From: a virus
Taxonomy: Duplodnaviria; Heunggongvirae; Uroviricota; Caudoviricetes
IMG/VR virus record: IMGVR_UViG_2526164619_000008
Location: 1-12,640 of that record
DNA length: 12,640 nucleotides
Strand: one strand, 5' to 3'
The position numbers were made by a program, and so were the translations under genes. Of the stretch, positions 1-9,157 are shown in pieces (within the stretch, counting starts at the first letter, position 1; every line of letters starts with the position of its first letter). Below the pieces are notes generated by a model. That model searched no databases. It was not told the origin of the DNA and saw nothing but the letters and a program-made list of their open reading frames with translations.

Positions 1-141
1 TTACTGCTTACACTGTAAGAATGCCGCAAACTCCGCTCCCCAGAAGCTCATCCGTATTTCGCACAGCGAACCGTGCAGCATCCAGATGATGAGGATTGCC
101 GTCACGCAGAACGTGATGGCCGTAAGCGATTTTTGCGACAT
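1..141 (-). CDS. Hok/Gef-family type I toxin-like small membrane peptide (46 aa)
   Basis: Minus-strand ORF, ATG at 141..139, stop at 3..1, translation MSQKSLTAITFCVTAILIIWMLHGSLCEIRMSFWGAEFAAFLQCKQ. Hydrophobic N-terminal segment followed by SLCEIR and G-x-E-x-AAF with the same spacing as plasmid R1 Hok (recalled: ...[23 protein letters not shown]...). AGGAG about 8 nt upstream of the ATG. Too short to appear in the supplied ORF track. Confidence 0.6.
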   Translation of the reverse strand: MSQKSLTAITFCVTAILIIWMLHGSLCEIRMSFWGAEFAAFLQCKQ

Positions 142-331
142 AGCGCTTGCTCCTTTTTCGGGGAGGCGCTAACCTATCACTTGCTTAGGGTAGACGGTTA
201 GGGCCTCGGTTAAACAAAAATGTTTTCCGGGGCCTTTCCACATCTGGCCTTCAGGTATTCCCTCCGACCATCAGCCGAAAGGCACCCGCGCGTAATCTAT
301 CGCTTTTTTGTTACTCCGGCAATTCTGCTCG

Positions 332-592
332 TTAATTCTGAGGTAAGGGCAAACTCATCTGATTGTTTCCTCTGTGTGAAGTTGGCAGTTCATGCCACGG
401 GATGCCCTCTGATGAGTGAATGGGGGAGGCGTGCTTTGAAGTGAATTTGTGGAAGGCTTCCAGTGTTGAGAAACATACGCCGCATTCTAGATTGTTACAC
501 TGATAATACTTTTGTCTCACGGTGTTTGAATCATTTTCCGGACGACTGGTGCGGATACGGGCAGATGCGCCACAAAGCGGACAACGGAACAT
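332..592 (-). CDS. ogr: Ogr/Delta-family zinc-finger late-gene transcription activator (86 aa, divergent)
   Basis: Translation begins MFRCPLCGASARIRTSRPE...YYQCNNLECG, matching the P2 Ogr N-terminus (recalled MFHCPLCQHAAHARTSR...YHQCQNVNCS) and its Cys-x2-Cys...Cys-x4-Cys arrangement. It sits downstream of gene D in the same orientation, as in P2, but with cargo in between. Confidence 0.7.
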   Translation of the reverse strand: MFRCPLCGASARIRTSRPENDSNTVRQKYYQCNNLECGVCFSTLEAFHKFTSKHASPIHSSEGIPWHELPTSHRGNNQMSLPLPQN

Positions 593-654
593 AGCGACCT
601 CTCTTATTGTAGTGCTTGCACTATTCTAGGTTGTATTCTCTAAGATTTAAACAT

Positions 655-663
655 GACTTTCTC
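655..663. repeat. 9-bp target-site duplication (GACTTTCTC), left copy, of the first IS1
   Basis: Identical 9-mer immediately outside both IS1 ends (655..663 and 1432..1440). Confidence 0.85.
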
Positions 664-718
664 GGTAATGCTGCCAACTTACTGATTTAGTGTATGATGG
701 TGATTTTAAGGTGCTTGC

Positions 719-994
719 ATGGCTTCCATTTCCATCAGATGTCCTTCCTGCTCCGCTACTGAAGGCGTGGTGCGTAACGGCAAAAGCACTGCCGGACATC
801 AGCGCTATCTCTGCTCTCATTGCCGTAAAACATGGCAACTACAGTTCACTTACACCGCCTCTCAGCCCGGTACGCACCAGAAAATCATTGATATGGCCAT
901 GAATGGCGTCGGATGTCGCGCCAGTGCACGCATTATGGGCGTTGGCCTCAACACGGTTTTACGTCACTTAAAAAACTCAGGCCGCAGTCGGTAA
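719..994 (+). CDS. insA: IS1 InsA transposition regulator (91 aa)
   Basis: Translation [43 protein letters not shown]... is the recognisable InsA sequence. Confidence 0.95.
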
Positions 995-1416
995 CCTCGC
1001 GCATACAACCGGGCAGTGATGTGATTGTCTGCGCTGAAATGGACGAACAGTGGGGCTACGTCGGTGCTAAATCACGTCAGCGCTGGCTGTTTTACGCGTA
1101 TGACAGGATACGGAGGACGGTTGTGGCGCACGTCTTCGGTGAACGCACTCTGGCCACACTGGAGCGTCTTCTGAGCCTGCTGTCGGCCTTTGAGGTCGTG
1201 GTATGGATGACGGATGGCTGGCCGCTGTATGAATCACGCCTGAAGGGAAAGCTGCACGTTATCAGCAAGCGTTACACTCAGCGCATTGAGCGACATAATC
1301 TGAATCTGAGACAACATCTGGCAAGGCTGGGACGGAAGTCACTGTCGTTCTCAAAATCGGTGGAGCTGCATGACAAGGTCATCGGGCATTATCTGAACAT
1401 AAAACACTATCAGTAA
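913..1416 (+). CDS. insB: IS1 InsB reading frame, normally expressed as the InsAB' transposase by -1 frameshift at the A6C run 970..976
   Basis: Translation ...[26 protein letters not shown]...[38 protein letters not shown] is the recognisable InsB; AAAAAAC motif lies in the insA/insB overlap. Confidence 0.9.
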
Positions 1417-1431
1417 GTTGGAGTCATTATC

Positions 1432-1440
1432 GACTTTCTC
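1432..1440. repeat. 9-bp target-site duplication (GACTTTCTC), right copy, of the first IS1
   Basis: Exact repeat of 655..663. Confidence 0.85.
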
Positions 1441-1464
1441 TATATAATGATTTTTAGCATTAGT

Positions 1465-1496
1465 TAATAAACGAACGGCACTCTAAGGAGCGCCGT
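1465..1496 (-). terminator. Putative intrinsic terminator of the large cargo ORF
   Basis: On the minus strand, directly after the ORF stop: a 9-bp stem (ACGGCGCTC / GAGTGCCGT, one G-U pair) with a 4-nt loop, followed by TCGTTTATT. Folded by eye only. Confidence 0.45.
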
Positions 1497-1504
1497 CAAA
1501 GATA

Positions 1505-4336
1505 TTATTCTGATGTCACTCTTTGCGAGTGAGCTATTTTTAAATCAGCGTTTCCTTCAAATACTATATTCAACTCATAGTTAAGAGTTAGCTTGAATTT
1601 ATCTGAGTCACTTTTGATATTCTCTGAAGTGACATTTACTAACTTATTATTATCATATTCTCTAATAATTAATTTAGTGAAGTAGTTATCCTTTACCACT
1701 AGAGAAAATGGTTGATTAACAAATGGTAAGAAGTAAACCTTACAGGTACCGGATTCAGTAGTTATGTTCATAGAGCCATCATCATTTTTTCTCATTAGTT
1801 CTCTGAGGTTGGGATTATCGAAAAGCATACGATTATATTGCTGAAAGATCTCTTTACTCATCACAAGAACCAGTTTGCCAGCCAAGTCAGCAGATGATTT
1901 TATGTGATCAATCAACATATTGAAATCTTCTATTACGGTATGTTGCGAACAGCCAGTGCTAAATAAATTTGAAAGTATTATTCTCTGGATGTCCTTGAGA
2001 ATTAAGTCTGCTTGAATATCACCTTCATTGATATAAGGGATGGATTCTATTCCTTCGGCATACGGTTCTTTATCTATCTTAATAGATATCTTATGTTTTG
2101 TGAAACAATCGCTAGCCTGCTTAAAATCAATAGATTTGAAAAGTGAAAGAGGGAGTGTTTTCTTGATGCGTTTACGAAGATGTTCTGATGTTTTACGTGC
2201 AGTGCTATCTAGTCGATGTACATCTATGGCAGCATCCTGAAGTCTCATATCAAGATCTTTCTTTAGCATGTTAATATGCTCTTGAAGCAACTTTCTTAAG
2301 TTTTCTTTTTTTGTTTGGAGATCGTCCAATGTTAAAGTCAGCTTGATTTTAGTGTATTCGATGGAGTTACAAATTTTTGATAATACTCCAATGAGTCGTT
2401 GCTTCTCACGATATGTTATATAGTTTTTTTCTATTGCTTCTTTTATTTCTTTTGATACGCTATCGTTCTTGTTAGAAAAAATTAATAATAGCTGAACCCA
2501 TGATTGTTCCATATCAATAAATCCACAGTCAAAAACATTACTGTAAACTCTGCCCATCACCATGTCTGTTTTATCATAGTCACGTAAACGCCTTGCTAAA
2601 CTATTCATCCACCCATTGTGCTCCATATTTTCAGACCATGTCCACAGGCAGATTCTAATTAATATCTTGATTAGTTGGCTTGCATTATCAATTTCTTCAG
2701 TGGGAGTTTCATATCCACCGGTTTGGTCAATAAGTTTACCCTCTAAAATAAGTTTAATGTAATGTGTCATTAATTTGTCAGAAATATTGATTCTTGATGT
2801 CAGATAAAGACATGTGCATATACGCATGTCAGTCAACGCATTTATGATGGCAATATTGAACCACTCTCTGTCTGAATTGAAGTTTAGTTTTTTGGATATG
2901 AAAAAACCCGGGTTAAAAAGCTGGCCTTTGTAACTGTATTTTTCTACCGAATGGCTGTCAATATTCATTGAGTGCTGCCATCGGTTAATAAGAACGACGG
3001 CTGTATCAATAGTAGAAGGATCGCGAGTCTGTGTTGCATCAATAATCATCGATGGAAGTTCTTGTAGTTGCGTTTTGCAAAATAATTCAAATAAATCTGA
3101 ATTCTCTGTATTGCAGAAACGAAAGTTTATGCTTTCTTGATATTGCTCCCAAACAGTGGTATAGGTTCTTAATATACGATTATAACGTGAACGAAGCGAG
3201 GCATTTAAGAGTGATTGGTTGTTTCGGAACCATTCTGTTAATATTGACCATTGTGAACGAGTAATTCCCATATAGATACAAAGTTCATTGGTGATAAGAT
3301 GTTTTCTATTATTGATAATACGCACTCCGCTCCAAAGACATAATTCAAAAAATCTTTCAGAAAGATTAATTTTATCCATGGAATTATTTGATATTTTATA
3401 AACTTCATCTGAAAACTCATATTGAAAACTCCGTTCAAATAATTCTGTAGTGATCAGTAAGAAGTTATTGTTGGTATTATCATCTTGAAAAAAATACAAA
3501 TCGCAGAGATTATTAAAGTTATTAATTAATGCAGAGATAGCATTGTCAAAACTAATGAGATCAGAATCCCGCAGATACATATACGTATCTGCTGTTATAG
3601 CCTGCATTGTAAGACTTACGGAAAAATCTCCTCCTTTAATCGGAGCCCTATAAAAACATTGCTTAAGTATTTTTATTAATAAGCTGTCTGGTTTGATATT
3701 TTTAACGCTAAAAAGTATCTTACCCGTGGATTCTGTTTCTTTTGTACGATTATCACCAATGACAAATGACGCAAAATGATTCTTCTTTTTTAGTTGGTAA
3801 TTAATAAGATTAAGAGTAAGTTGAAAAGGACGGTGATATAAACTTAACTCATCTTCCTTAGAATAACTGCTAGCCACAGATATGTATTCTCCTTTGTAAC
3901 CGGCTTGCTTGATTTCTAAATTTGAATAGTTATGTTTTTGATAGATAGGGTATAACCTAAGCTTGGCTGAGATTTTGTTACAAATATGGGGCATTACTAT
4001 TTCGAAGGCAATGTATCGCTTTATAATTATTTGCCGTTTTACATCATCAAGAATTTCAAGACTCACGATAAAGAACCAAATAGAAAGAACTATGTTTATC
4101 AAAAGCCATAATATGCTGATTAGACAAGCTATACCATAAAGATAACTTCCAAAGACAGTTTTAATTAGTACACTGAGAAGTATAAATCCTGATAAGAAAA
4201 GCCCGCTGAGTCCAGCAAGCATGAATCCTGAGTAACGCTGATAAGCAGTTTGGGCTATTTTTCTATCTGCCTTTTTTTGGAATAAGACACTTACTAAACC
4301 TATAACAAGTGGGTATACAATACCAATAATTGTCAA
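1505..4336 (-). CDS. Large orphan protein (~943 aa) with a hydrophobic N-terminal region (about three predicted transmembrane helices) and a long Ile/Asn/Lys-rich soluble domain with coiled-coil-like stretches; function unknown
   Basis: Single uninterrupted ORF in a visibly AT-rich segment. The ORF-track start is TTG at 4336; the first in-frame ATG is at 4222 (codon 39), so the true start is uncertain. No Walker A or other catalytic motif recognised by eye. Confidence 0.7.
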   Translation of the reverse strand: MTIIGIVYPLVIGLVSVLFQKKADRKIAQTAYQRYSGFMLAGLSGLFLSGFILLSVLIKTVFGSYLYGIACLISILWLLINIVLSIWFFIVSLEILDDVKRQIIIKRYIAFEIVMPHICNKISAKLRLYPIYQKHNYSNLEIKQAGYKGEYISVASSYSKEDELSLYHRPFQLTLNLINYQLKKKNHFASFVIGDNRTKETESTGKILFSVKNIKPDSLLIKILKQCFYRAPIKGGDFSVSLTMQAITADTYMYLRDSDLISFDNAISALINNFNNLCDLYFFQDDNTNNNFLLITTELFERSFQYEFSDEVYKISNNSMDKINLSERFFELCLWSGVRIINNRKHLITNELCIYMGITRSQWSILTEWFRNNQSLLNASLRSRYNRILRTYTTVWEQYQESINFRFCNTENSDLFELFCKTQLQELPSMIIDATQTRDPSTIDTAVVLINRWQHSMNIDSHSVEKYSYKGQLFNPGFFISKKLNFNSDREWFNIAIINALTDMRICTCLYLTSRINISDKLMTHYIKLILEGKLIDQTGGYETPTEEIDNASQLIKILIRICLWTWSENMEHNGWMNSLARRLRDYDKTDMVMGRVYSNVFDCGFIDMEQSWVQLLLIFSNKNDSVSKEIKEAIEKNYITYREKQRLIGVLSKICNSIEYTKIKLTLTLDDLQTKKENLRKLLQEHINMLKKDLDMRLQDAAIDVHRLDSTARKTSEHLRKRIKKTLPLSLFKSIDFKQASDCFTKHKISIKIDKEPYAEGIESIPYINEGDIQADLILKDIQRIILSNLFSTGCSQHTVIEDFNMLIDHIKSSADLAGKLVLVMSKEIFQQYNRMLFDNPNLRELMRKNDDGSMNITTESGTCKVYFLPFVNQPFSLVVKDNYFTKLIIREYDNNKLVNVTSENIKSDSDKFKLTLNYELNIVFEGNADLKIAHSQRVTSE

Positions 4337-4871
4337 TTGGCCACTTAAAATGGTTGTTTGCCATTCGGTTAATGAATGCCTAAACGGGAAATAATGTAAA
4401 AGATTATTTTTTATAAATAATTCGTTTAAATATCCAACATAAAGTAGTACAAATGAAAAAGCTGATATGCAAAGTACTGATTTAACCGGTGAGGATGTTA
4501 ATCTTATGATGTTTTTTCAATAAAATTCCATTTTAAATTCGAATAAAATGGATTTTTAACCATTTTATTACGAACATAGTTCTTTGCTAAAATCTCTGTT
4601 GCACTTAAAAATTGTCCAATCATGAATTACTCTTCTATAAAGTGTGGGTCTACTAACTAAACTGGAATTTTTACTATTGAGTCATATTCCCTTGGACGGG
4701 ATGGACTGTGAAGATTATACTTGACTTCCTCTGTCATGTGGGAAAAACATCCGTATTATTGTTAGCATCTGGTTGATGCCCCAACCTCTGACATCTAGTG
4801 GGCTGATACATTATCTTTTGTTCTTACTGTCAGTGTAGAAGCACATCTCAAAAATAATATTTTTAAGAGAT
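4337..4871 (-). promoter_or_regulatory. AT-rich ~535-bp non-coding leader between the D stop and the cargo ORF; presumed promoter/regulatory region
   Basis: No ORF longer than ~26 codons on either strand; composition shifts abruptly at the gene D stop codon (4872). Confidence 0.35.
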
Positions 4872-5980
4872 TTATTCTATTTCTGCTATCCATTCCGGGA
4901 TTTTTGCTTCAAGTTCAAGCTGCGTGGTAAAGCCGCTGTTATCAATGGTGTGCTCGGCTTTTGCAATAATCCAGTCCTGATAATCAATCTCGCTTTTAAA
5001 GCCTGTCACTGTGCCATGCATTTCGGGATAGAGTTCTGCACGACCACGCGCCAGCGTGATGGAGAATGATGCGGCTCCGCGTTGTAGCTGCTGCCACTTT
5101 GCCGCCGCTGCGCGTCTTGCTGCCTGCTCGTTCTGATAAGTCTTGCGTAACACAAACACGTTGCCTTCCGCACCTTCCATATAGTCGCCTTCCCGACTGC
5201 TGCTTTTCTCCTTTTTGGGTTTTGGCGGTTTGCGGCGTTTCACGTTGACTTTTTTCTTTTCCCGTAATTAAGATCAAGCCAGTAGGCGCGTACCCCTGTA
5301 TACGCCTCGCGGTCAGCAATGCGGAACTGATGGCGATCGCCGCTGCTGCGTGTAATGGCGAACGAGGGCAACGGCTGCCCCTGTGCGTTCACGCCACCAC
5401 CTGGCATGATGAATAACAGATTGCCGCTTTTTACCGTGGCGATTGCTCCCAGCATTTCCGCCATGCGCGTAAGAAAGGACATGTCGCTTTCTTCGGTCTG
5501 GTCGGCGTGGTCGATTTCGATATCCATCAGCATTTCGCTGATTTGCGGTTTCAGGCCGTACCGATGAGCGATGGCGGATACCACACGCTCAACGGTCACA
5601 TCATGCCAGGACACCTCACGTTTAACGTTAAATTCATCCCGAAAATCTGCGCTTCTGGCTGAAACAGTCAGCCTGTCCGGCGGTCCTTCGTGAGCGATTT
5701 CATCAACAATGTAAGTGCCTTTTTCTGTCAGCGGTTCCCCTTTCCAGCCAATGAGAACCGTCAGACGCGCGCCCCGTGGCGGTAGCTGCAACTGACCATC
5801 CGCATCATCCAGCGTGATGGTGAGCTGGTCCGCCTCAAATCCCCGGTTGTCGGTCAGTGACAGGCACATCAGGCGCTCCGCCACGCCTGACAGCGTTTTA
5901 CCCTCCGAGAGAATATCAAAATCCGGCATTTTCACGGGGGCCGTGCCCTGACTGAGCAATTGCATGGTGGTGTCGGTCAT
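4872..5980 (-). pseudogene. D: P2-type tail protein D, interrupted by one frameshift in a homopolymer run (5250..5255)
   Basis: Two adjacent minus-strand ORFs (5240..6112 and 4872..5243) together match gpD (LTDNRGFEADQLTITLDDADGQLQLP..., SWHD, ITRSSGDRHQFRIADREAYTGV, REGDYMEGAEGNVFVL, GFTTQLELE). Adding one A to the AAAAAA run restores ...GKRKKVNVKRRKPPKPKKE.... Likely start is ATG at 5980 (MTDTTMQLL) with AGGGAGGGAG upstream. Confidence 0.85.
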
Positions 5981-6137
5981 CTGCTCCCTCCCTGTGCGGC
6001 ATGGTCGCATGTGCGTGCGGATGGGGTTACTGCTTTTTGTTGTCGCCGTGGCGGGAGAACGGCGCAGGGGTGAGATTGCGCGCGTGGTGGGTGATGATTG
6101 TTGCTGAATCATTTAACGGATACAAGGGGCTGAAGCT

Positions 6138-7322
6138 ATGAGTGAAACTCGTTTTCATGGTGCCCGTGTTACGGAGAATACCGACCTGGTAACAGCGATT
6201 AACGATGTTGATTCCAGCGTTATCGGTATCGTGGCAACGGCGGATGATGCGGACGCGAAGCTGTTCCCGCTGAACAAGCCCACACTGCTGACCCGCGTCA
6301 ATGACGTGCTGGGAAAATGCGGGACAACGGGGACGCTTTATCGTGCGCTTAAGGCCATCGCAGACCAGGTGAGCACAAAGGTGATCGTCGTTCGCGTGGC
6401 TGAACACAAAGAAGAAGACGGAAAGACGCAGGATCAACTGGTTATCGGTGGTTCTGAGGATGACGGCAGCTATACGGGGATGTATGCGCTGCTTGTTGCA
6501 GAGCAGGATGAAAGCATCGGATACCGTCCGCATATTCTGGCCGCGCCGGAGCTGGACACGGAGGCGGTAACAAAATCCCTGTGCGTGATTGCAGATAAAC
6601 TGCGCGCGTTTGTGTATGCCTCATGTCATGGCTGTAACACGATGGCCGAGGCAATTACCTACCGCCAGAAATTCAACGAACGTGAGGTGATGCTCTTATG
6701 GCCGGACTTCATCGCCTACAACCCGAAAAATGGCAAAAACGAAACGTTCCCCGCGCCTGCCTATGCGTGCGGCCTTCGTGCGTACATTGACCATGAACAG
6801 GGATGGCACAAATCGCTGTCCAACGTTCCGGTTAAAAATGTGCTGGGGATGTCGAGGCATGTGTTCTGGTCGTTGCAGGCCGAAGACAGCGATGCCAACA
6901 GCCTCAACAACAAAGAAATCACGACCATTATTCGTCGCAACGGGTTCCGCTTCTGGGGTAACCGCACACCGGAAACGAATGCCTACATCTTTGAGGTGTA
7001 TACCCGAACCGCACAGGTGCTGGCTGATTCAATTGCGGAAGCGCAGTTTGAAACCATCGACAGTCCACTGACGCCTGCGAATGTGAAGGATGTTATCAGT
7101 GCCATCAGGGCAAAACTGGATTCACTGGTGACTGCCGGGAAACTGATTGGCGCGGAGTGCTGGTATGACGTGGTGGATAACAGCACCACGGATTTACGTC
7201 AGGGACGTGTGCGTATTCGCTACAAATATACGCCCGTTCCGCCACTGGAAGACATGGAGCTTTACCAGACGTTTACTGATGAATACTTTGAACCCGCATT
7301 TGCGGTGCTGGGAGGTGCCTGA
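6138..7322 (+). CDS. FI: P2-type contractile tail sheath protein FI (394 aa)
   Basis: Translation contains DADAKLFPLNKPTLL, KLRAFVYAS, LLWPDF, EQGWHKSLSNV, RRNGFRFWGNRT, YTRTAQVLAD, YKYTPVPPLE, which match recalled P2 FI blocks; size matches (P2 FI ~396 aa); AAGGGG RBS. Confidence 0.9.
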   Translation: MSETRFHGARVTENTDLVTAINDVDSSVIGIVATADDADAKLFPLNKPTLLTRVNDVLGKCGTTGTLYRALKAIADQVSTKVIVVRVAEHKEEDGKTQDQLVIGGSEDDGSYTGMYALLVAEQDESIGYRPHILAAPELDTEAVTKSLCVIADKLRAFVYASCHGCNTMAEAITYRQKFNEREVMLLWPDFIAYNPKNGKNETFPAPAYACGLRAYIDHEQGWHKSLSNVPVKNVLGMSRHVFWSLQAEDSDANSLNNKEITTIIRRNGFRFWGNRTPETNAYIFEVYTRTAQVLADSIAEAQFETIDSPLTPANVKDVISAIRAKLDSLVTAGKLIGAECWYDVVDNSTTDLRQGRVRIRYKYTPVPPLEDMELYQTFTDEYFEPAFAVLGGA

Positions 7323-7819
7323 TGGCTGTGCCAAAACATCTTCGCTTTTTTACGCTGTTTGTGGATGGTGAAAACGAAGTGGGTAAGGTGACGTCCGTCA
7401 CTCTGCCTAAGCTGACGCGCAAAACCGACAGCTACCGGGGTGGTGGCATGATGGGTGCGGTAAGTATTGATCTCGGTCTGGACGACTCCGCGCTTGATGC
7501 GAGCTTTGTCATGGGGGGCGCAGTTCGTGAGCTGTTCCTTAAGTATGGCGGCACGATTGACGGCACGCTGCTGCGTTTTGCGGGTGAATACTACACCGAT
7601 GCAGAAAGCGACCTGTATGAAGTCGAAATGCGCGGACGTGTGACGGAAATTGATATGGGCGAAGCCACATCACACACTTACGCCATTAAAAACACCTACT
7701 ACAAGCTGAGTGTTAACGATCGCCCGTTGTGGGAGATTGACCTGCTGAACTTCATTTACCGGAAGGACGGCAAGGACATTGTGCCCGATCGCATCCGTTC
7801 CGCGCTTGGGCTTGGCTGA
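7322..7819 (+). CDS. FII: P2-type tail tube protein FII (165 aa)
   Basis: Start overlaps the FI stop (TGATG); GGAGGTG RBS; position and size match P2 FII. Confidence 0.85.
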   Translation: MAVPKHLRFFTLFVDGENEVGKVTSVTLPKLTRKTDSYRGGGMMGAVSIDLGLDDSALDASFVMGGAVRELFLKYGGTIDGTLLRFAGEYYTDAESDLYEVEMRGRVTEIDMGEATSHTYAIKNTYYKLSVNDRPLWEIDLLNFIYRKDGKDIVPDRIRSALGLG

Positions 7820-7874
7820 TAAGTAATATGCTGGCGGCGCAGTGCGTCGCCTCTGACTGAAAAGGAGACAACAG

Positions 7875-8249
7875 ATGAAAGACATCGATACTGAAACCCG
7901 GAATAACACCGTGGCGGATAATGTGACGGCAGTTGAGGATATGGCTGTCGAACGTGGCGTAAAACTGACCCGACCAATTGAGCGTGGTGGCGAAAAAATC
8001 ACGTATGTGGAGATCACCGGGGCTATTGAGCAGGCTGGATCCCTGCGTGGTCTGTCGCTGTCTGATGCGCTGAATCTGAAAGCGGATACCATGTTCACGC
8101 TGTTGCCTCGCGTGACCTCGCCACGACTGGATGAAGTGATGATTAAAAAAATGTCGTCACGCGATTTTATTCAGTTGTGCGCTGTGGCTGTAAATTTTAT
8201 GAGCGAGCCAGACTCTGGCGCGAAGAGCGTGCAGGAGACGGCAGCGTAA
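7875..8249 (+). CDS. E: Tail assembly chaperone E-like protein (124 aa)
   Basis: Called by synteny (directly after FII), AAAGGAG RBS 7 nt upstream of the ATG, and an overlapping -1 frame ORF as in the P2 E/E' pair. Not confirmed by sequence identity. Confidence 0.65.
   Translation: MKDIDTETRNNTVADNVTAVEDMAVERGVKLTRPIERGGEKITYVEITGAIEQAGSLRGLSLSDALNLKADTMFTLLPRVTSPRLDEVMIKKMSSRDFIQLCAVAVNFMSEPDSGAKSVQETAA
8192..8198 (+). other. Candidate -1 programmed frameshift heptamer A_AAT_TTT joining E to E'
   Basis: Zero-frame codons AAT TTT preceded by A give an X_XXY_YYZ heptamer inside the 8177..8249 overlap of the E frame and the -1 frame. Confidence 0.4.
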
Positions 8250-8389
8250 TCACCCTGGTGTGCTTTGAGCACATCGAAGATCTGGTGGCGGATATTGCCG
8301 CCATTTTTAACTGGTCGCCCGCCGAAATCTTCATGATGACGCCCGGCGAAGTGGTTAGCTGGCGTGAGCGGGCGGCACTTCGTAGCGGG
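8198..8389 (+). pseudogene. E' extension reading frame (-1 relative to E), 3' end cut by IS1
   Basis: The -1 frame stays open from 8177 and runs into IS1 with no native stop (...EVVSWRERAALRSGG then IS1-encoded NAANLLI*). Confidence 0.55.
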
Positions 8390-8444
8390 GGTAATGCTGC
8401 CAACTTACTGATTTAGTGTATGATGGTGATTTTAAGGTGCTTGC

Positions 8445-8720
8445 GTGGCTTCCATTTCCATCAGATGTCCTTCCTGCACCGCTACTGAAGGCGTGGTGCG
8501 TAACGGCAAAAGCACTGCCGGACATCAGCGCTATCTCTGCTCTCATTGCCGTAAAACATGGCAACTACAGTTCACTTACACCGCCTCTCAGCCCGGTACG
8601 CACCAGAAAATCATTGATATGGCCATGAATGGCGTCGGATGTCGCGCCAGTGCACGCATTATGGGCGTTGGCCTCAACACGGTTTTACGTCACTTAAAAA
8701 ACTCAGGCCGCAGTCGGTAA
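8445..8720 (+). CDS. insA: IS1 InsA (91 aa; GTG start in this copy)
   Basis: Same protein as 719..994 with one substitution (S12T); start codon GTG here versus ATG in the first copy. Confidence 0.95.
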
Positions 8721-9142
8721 CCTCGCGCATACAACCGGGCAGTGATGTGATTGTCTGCGCTGAAATGGACGAACAGTGGGGCTACGTCGGTGCTAAATCA
8801 CATCAGCGCTGGCTGTTTTACGCGTATGACAGGATACGGAGGACGGTTGTGGCGCACGTCTTCGGTGAACGCACTCTGGCCACACTGGAGCGTCTTCTGA
8901 GCCTGCTGTCGGCCTTTGAGGTCGTGGTATGGATGACGGATGGCTGGCCGCTGTATGAATCACGCCTGAAGGGAAAGCTGCACGTTATCAGCAAGCGTTA
9001 CACTCAGCGCATTGAGCGACATAATCTGAATCTGAGACAACATCTGGCAAGGCTGGGACGGAAGTCACTGTCGTTCTCAAAATCGGTGGAGCTGCATGAC
9101 AAGGTCATCGGGCATTATCTGAACATAAAACACTATCAGTAA
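8639..9142 (+). CDS. insB: IS1 InsB reading frame (InsAB' via -1 frameshift at A6C 8696..8702)
   Basis: Same as 913..1416 with one substitution (R55H). Confidence 0.9.
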
Positions 9143-9157
9143 GTTGGAGTCATTACC

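Follow-up and report, generated by a model that had tools for sequence, protein, structure and literature searches.

Does the apparent split of tail gene D in this prophage reflect a mutation in the bacterium, a recoding signal or a fault in the sequence data? The window (the whole stretch of 12,640 nucleotides that was analyzed) matches contig AKMY01000025.1 of the Shigella flexneri K-315 draft assembly GCA_000268165.1 at 100% identity (contig position = window position + 122326), and the prophage it carries is a P88-like (Xuanwuvirus, P2-family) remnant. Gene D appears there as two open reading frames (ORFs). In our judgment the split is probably a homopolymer under-call in the K-315 sequencing data; under either reading, as error or as mutation, a split gene D is an ordinary finding.

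Gene D and the prophage remnant around it

The two ORFs of gene D are as follows:

5980..5240, minus strand: D ORF1, 246 aa, ATG at 5980 and TGA at 5242..5240, the N-terminal part, annotated as EIQ23559.1
5243..4872, minus strand: D ORF2, 123 aa, GTG at 5243, the C-terminal part, in the -1 frame relative to ORF1, annotated as EIQ23558.1

ORF1 ends in ..AYWLDLNYGKRKKST (..YGKRKKST-stop) and ORF2 begins with (M)KRRKPPKPKKEK.. Against the Phage_GPD profile (PF05954), ORF1 matches positions 48-206 of 305 (29.8 bits) and ORF2 positions 218-304 (25.5 bits), each just below the gathering score of 30.1 bits; since they match successive parts of the profile, they are collinear halves of one family. The repaired 369-aa protein matches it in one stretch (profile 48-304) with 60.1 bits, above the cut-off. 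The preliminary description of this DNA had proposed that D is divided between two ORFs one nucleotide out of frame and that one extra A restores a protein of about 369 aa; the collinear matches agree with the former, and the latter is borne out by the length of the repaired protein, which is that of the intact relatives.

The best match of the repaired D in a tblastn search of phage genomes was the “Gene D protein” of Xuanwuvirus P884B11 (97.8% identity, residues 1-369), and identity to the D proteins of P2-like phages is about 48%. Residues 18-356 align with residues 2-320 of 329 of the R2 pyocin baseplate hub (PDB 6U5H, chain C; E = 1.8e-40), an end-to-end alignment that identifies D as the hub of a contractile tail baseplate. 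Judged by these similarities, the product of the repaired gene belongs to the Phage_GPD / P2 gpD baseplate hub family. Genes for sheath, tube and E adjoin D in the window, and the order in intact relatives is U-T-E'-E-FII-FI, then D, a cargo gene and ogr. In all relatives examined D is one uninterrupted ORF; in the window it is two.

Gene D and the sheath-tube-E operon diverge from each other at window 5980..6138, unlike in P2, where they are co-directional. All of the E. coli relatives seen have this arrangement, with a recombinase gene bordering the U-T-E'-E-FII-FI block at its far end. The arrangement thus belongs to the prophage group and did not arise by rearrangement in K-315.

Two insertion sequences, in direct orientation and differing at 4 bases, account for the state of the prophage:

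664..1431, plus strand: IS1 copy with a 9-bp target duplication (GACTTTCTC), a simple insertion; a prophage defect found also in the siblings
8390..9157, plus strand: IS1 copy without a target duplication, joining truncated E' to truncated replication gene A; junction found also in a sibling contig

At the second copy, what remains of tail gene E' meets replication gene A, of which the first 405 codons are left, and T, U, the baseplate, fibre, lysis, head, portal and terminase genes, all present in intact relatives, are gone. This copy, which lacks a target duplication, marks a deletion of everything from tail gene E' to the middle of replication gene A. The prophage is thus already dead from an IS1-mediated deletion, so the question of whether D is intact or broken is of little consequence.

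Both IS1 junctions are common to sibling S. flexneri contigs whose D is intact; the split of D must therefore be later than the death of the prophage, or not real. The preliminary description had called an inactivated D consistent with the other prophage defects, which is true, yet it is not diagnostic, since the siblings share the IS1 defects and have an intact D. Look-ups for further sibling sequence returned K-315 only for the truncated gene A fragment, and unrelated intact prophages for the 95-aa early protein.

Other features of the remnant can be noted here. A gene for a Hok/Gef-family toxin (46 aa) lies at window 1..141 on the minus strand, at the border of prophage and chromosome beside ihfA-pheT, as in the E. 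coli relatives; ogr, which in relatives lies between the cargo gene and hok, is absent from the window, with IS1 in its place. Logan contig SRR066119_1107 is identical to window 5887..7925 and then differs in its last 10 bases (CTCGCGATAT versus ACGGCAGTTG), which suggests another junction, for instance from an IS insertion or a rearrangement, within the E gene region of that sample.

The short run and its distribution

The TAA of the ORF2 frame at 5270..5268 and the TGA of ORF1 at 5242..5240 bound the frame change, which must therefore lie inside 5243..5267. That interval reads TTACGGG-AAAA-G-AAAAAA-GTCAACG and so contains two A runs:

5243..5267, minus strand: joining interval of 25 nt; an added base (+1) or a -1 slip at any point in it joins the ORFs
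5257..5260, minus strand: the short run, A4 in the coding sense (T4 on the plus strand) and A5 in all relatives; contig positions 127583-127586
5250..5255, minus strand: the run named in the preliminary description, A6 here and A6 also in intact relatives; not the changed site

One base added anywhere within the interval gives a 369-aa D of the same length as in the intact relatives, and the choice between the two runs comes from comparison. The loci of E. coli ETEC4088 and GDSC2BY4G, about 99% identical, read GGG-A5-G-A6-GTC, while the window reads GGG-A4-G-A6-GTC; A5-G-A6 was likewise found in every other locus fetched, the S. flexneri sibling contigs included. Repair in the A4 run gives a protein (..YGKKKKVNVKRR..) that has exact matches in S. 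flexneri (HCR5812304.1 and HCS1651790.1), while an exact look-up among about 15 billion proteins did not find the protein repaired in the A6 run (..YGKRKKVNV..). Taken together, these place the missing base in 5257..5260 and not in 5250..5255. The preliminary description, which put the lesion in 5250..5255, was therefore wrong about the run, although its wider interval of 5240..5260 does contain the true site. The comparison with D genes of related prophages that it had proposed confirmed a single-base shortfall in an A run: all relatives have the extra base.

Among about 15 billion proteins, the split ORFs were found as exact sequences only in GCA_000268165.1 and, for ORF1, in a Logan contig of run SRR066117 (3.2 kb, 100% identical to window 5225..8416). 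We considered whether the end of that contig at window 5225 reflects heterogeneity among the reads at the run and drew no conclusion from it: it does not fit the expected k-mer geometry, and contigs of other runs end at non-repeat sites too. The pattern A4-G-A6 had no matches in GTDB species genomes, JGI metagenomes or IMG/VR, where the control pattern A5-G-A6 had 3, 101 and at least 120 matches, respectively. The 86-nt site is present in 1120 complete E. coli genomes, none of them identical to the window allele; 30 full-length matches were sampled from along the ranking, and in each the 86-nt query aligns to 87 nt. Of 520 phage genome records, 450 align over 80% or more of the repaired D, and each of the 25 phage rows listed has D as a single tblastn piece. 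A4 occurs also in a contig of SRR094143, there alongside three further A-run shortfalls. With D intact in E. coli, in phages and in the siblings, and A4-G-A6 absent elsewhere, we conclude that the family as a whole has an unsplit D and that the split is private to K-315 data.

In RefSeq, ETEC4088 (12161..13270) and many other E. coli carry D as a 266-aa “contractile injection system protein, VgrG/Pvc8 family” together with a short, partial “hypothetical protein.” These labels might be read as a split that is widespread in E. coli; that reading was rejected, as the D frame of ETEC4088 is uninterrupted over 369 codons and the PGAP coding sequence is merely shorter. The two-piece labelling is an annotation start-site quirk and not a split gene. 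In several E. coli draft assemblies, “partial” D fragments have their first residue right in the lysine-rich tract (KKKVSVKRR.., KRRKPPK..). The tract may be a frequent breakpoint of contigs and is possibly a mosaic boundary between co-resident P2-like prophages.

Sibling contigs and a second shortfall

In seven contigs of other S. flexneri samples, gene D codes for a 369-aa protein identical to the A5-repaired one. The longest, JAAOUN010000189.1 (7111 nt), has both of its ends within IS1, in the two copies known from the window, and its alignment to window 1355..8463 has 0 substitutions and two single-base gaps, both of them A-run shortfalls in K-315. Run-length changes are thus the only differences over 7111 nt: 2 of 50 runs of at least five are shortened in K-315 and nothing else is changed. 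Logan contig ERR6006294_19 has the identical two gaps and no substitutions relative to the window. The second shortfall lies close to the first:

4512..4517, minus strand: A6 here and A7 in relatives, 745 bases from the D site

It divides a cargo ORF of 1039 aa into a 39-aa fragment (4623..4504) and a 943-aa ORF (4336..1505), so that both K-315 shortfalls break ORFs that are intact elsewhere.

The cargo ORF (window 1505..4623, minus strand; 151..3270 in JAAOUN010000189.1) is 1039 aa long when intact and lies between D and ogr in the prophage family. It has 33% GC, compared with 54% for D and the sheath gene, carries the PGAP label “MFS transporter” and has predicted membrane-like N-terminal segments; searches of Pfam and PADLOC found no family for it. 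It looks like a phage cargo (moron) gene. Its A6 allele at 4512..4517 is present also in Logan contigs of SRR094143, SRR22422869 and SRR8186669. The last two are later runs with an intact D site, and the A6 allele in them means that the A7 run may vary for real; this run, near the 5' end of the gene, varies repeatedly, either through error or through real slippage.

A further, independent pointer to an artefact came from SRR094143. A look-up with the 39-aa fragment led to Logan contig SRR094143_149, which carries a prophage 2% divergent from the window and which, relative to intact relatives, has four one-base A-run shortfalls in 5.3 kb and 0 insertions (4 of 43 runs of at least five):

Contig positions 2364, 2369, 3106 and 3832: shortfalls of a single A each

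Gene D has two of them (A5 to A4 and A6 to A5), the cargo gene has one (A7 to A6), and the fourth is another A6 to A5; both K-315 sites are thus included. This density of shortfalls is not genome-wide biology and looks like systematic homopolymer under-calling.

Under-call, deletion or recoding

What was observed is that a base is missing relative to all relatives, that the A4-G-A6 allele is private and that a second shortfall of the same kind lies 745 bases away. The preliminary description had offered mutation or homopolymer error as the alternatives; both stand as the sole serious options, and the evidence leans toward sequencing error. On that reading, the A5 run at window 5257..5260 would have been recorded as A4 in the K-315 data, and the recorded A4 would shift the last 123 D codons to the -1 frame; gene D would most likely be intact in the bacterium itself. 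We infer that the cause lies in sequencing chemistry and not in mutation.

The data may also be of a kind prone to such errors. The K-315 contig passes through at least three IS1 copies, and short-read sibling contigs end at IS1; that the contig spans them points to longer or paired reads of the 2010 era, such as pyrosequencing. The sole data sets with A4, SRR066117 and SRR094143, appear to be early runs, judging from their low SRR numbers. A literature search on the sequencing platform of K-315, SRR066117 and SRR094143 found nothing.

Several points count against an artefact. The Logan k-mer assembly of SRR066117 is independent and reproduces A4, so that most reads appear to favor A4 and a mere assembler glitch is not the explanation. 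Consensus under-calls at runs as short as five are uncommon for pyrosequencing, and homopolymer slippage is the commonest natural indel mechanism. In about 7.7 kb of K-315 housekeeping genes there were 0 frameshifts, a weak test with 22 runs of at least five and about 0.9 frameshifts expected; pheT, pheS, rplT, selO and others have normal lengths, with no frameshift of the kind expected from sequencing error. Two one-base gaps between K-315 and E. coli fall outside called genes and are uninformative.

The alternative that survives best is a real and very recent one-base deletion private to K-315, arising by replication slippage in the A5 run as a further step in the decay of a defective prophage. 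It would truncate gpD after residue 243 (plus 3 out-of-frame residues), with loss of the conserved C-terminal third. The A4 of the SRR066117 assembly is in its favor, and D is not under selection in a remnant to which IS1 has cost T, U, the baseplate, the head and part of gene A. Shigella genomes are known to accumulate pseudogenes, and the A7 to A6 change of the cargo gene recurs in the later runs SRR22422869 and SRR8186669, where that run may vary in nature. Against this, 7.1 kb of sibling sequence agrees with K-315 at every base outside the two sites, too short a divergence for two real indels to be expected. Substitutions run well ahead of indels, both in mutation theory and in mutation-accumulation data; with 0 substitutions in 7.1 kb, two real indels are improbable. 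Furthermore, the A4-G-A6 allele was not found outside K-315 data in E. coli genomes, the protein collection or pattern scans, and both sites are short also in the unrelated old run SRR094143, at a density of A-run shortfalls that is not biologically credible. We regard a genuine deletion as the less likely reading.

The missing base also creates a motif known from programmed frameshifting:

5249..5255, minus strand: A_AAA_AAG heptamer, in phase with ORF1 (AGA AAA AAG) owing to the missing base

A designed feature of the phage group, yielding one D protein by -1 frameshifting on this heptamer or by transcriptional slippage, is scarcely credible. The slippery heptamer is indeed there, and a -1 slip at A_AAA_AAG reads GTC AAC GTG, which is the ORF2 frame. 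A run of six A is, however, short for RNA-polymerase slippage, which counts against the transcriptional form. D is a single ORF in the relatives (phages, E. coli and siblings), all sampled E. coli genomes and all siblings carry the extra base, and the heptamer is out of phase in the intact gene, so that it is the missing base that brings the motif about. As for a downstream stimulatory RNA structure, the 79 nt examined show no more folding stability than shuffled sequences (z = +1.03), of which 172 in 200 fold equally well or better, and no Shine-Dalgarno-like element at stimulatory distance was seen on reading the sequence. The single ORF in relatives and the lack of a predicted structure together rule out a programmed frameshift as a family feature. 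A_AAA_AAG, the shift site of dnaX, ranks with the most shift-prone heptamers of E. coli (PMC5009743), and one-base deletions beside C_AAA_AAA in pDEST17 are compensated by such slippage in E. coli (PMC1851650). If the deletion were real, spontaneous -1 slippage by the single tRNA-Lys, at the heptamer two codons before the ORF1 stop, could yield some full-length gpD (..YGKRKKVNVKRR..), although we think this improbable; such leaky gpD would be adventitious, the result of a self-compensating frameshift mutation. A weaker variant would have the A runs of D and the cargo gene act as slippage-prone on/off tracts in the prophage family.

Consequences and likeness to known systems

An intact D would change nothing for the cell, nor would a broken one, in a prophage without tape measure, baseplate, head and part of the replication gene. 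The consequences of an under-call lie with the annotation: EIQ23559.1 and EIQ23558.1, along with the 943-aa neighbor, are best regarded as pieces of single genes that were probably split in error, and “pseudogenes” that owe their frameshift to an A or T run in the K-315 assembly or similar drafts of the 2010 era should not be taken as evidence of Shigella gene decay without read-level checks.

The pattern in K-315 resembles the flow-based under-calls of pyrosequencing and semiconductor sequencing in its one-base shortfalls, runs of at least five, 0 substitutions, breakage of intact ORFs and old runs; it differs in that one of the affected runs is only five long. With a dnaX-type site the window shares the heptamer, in phase, and a -1 frame that is a functional continuation, but its motif has no stimulatory structure, is unconserved and arises only from the missing base. 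Gene D of Xuanwuvirus P884B11 (Peduoviridae) is one full-length ORF, whereas that of the window is two ORFs inside a remnant. Compared with the R2 pyocin hub (6U5H, chain C), the break in the window sits in a lysine-rich linker that is gapped and variable against the pyocin protein, and the conserved C-terminal block beyond it would be missing from ORF1.
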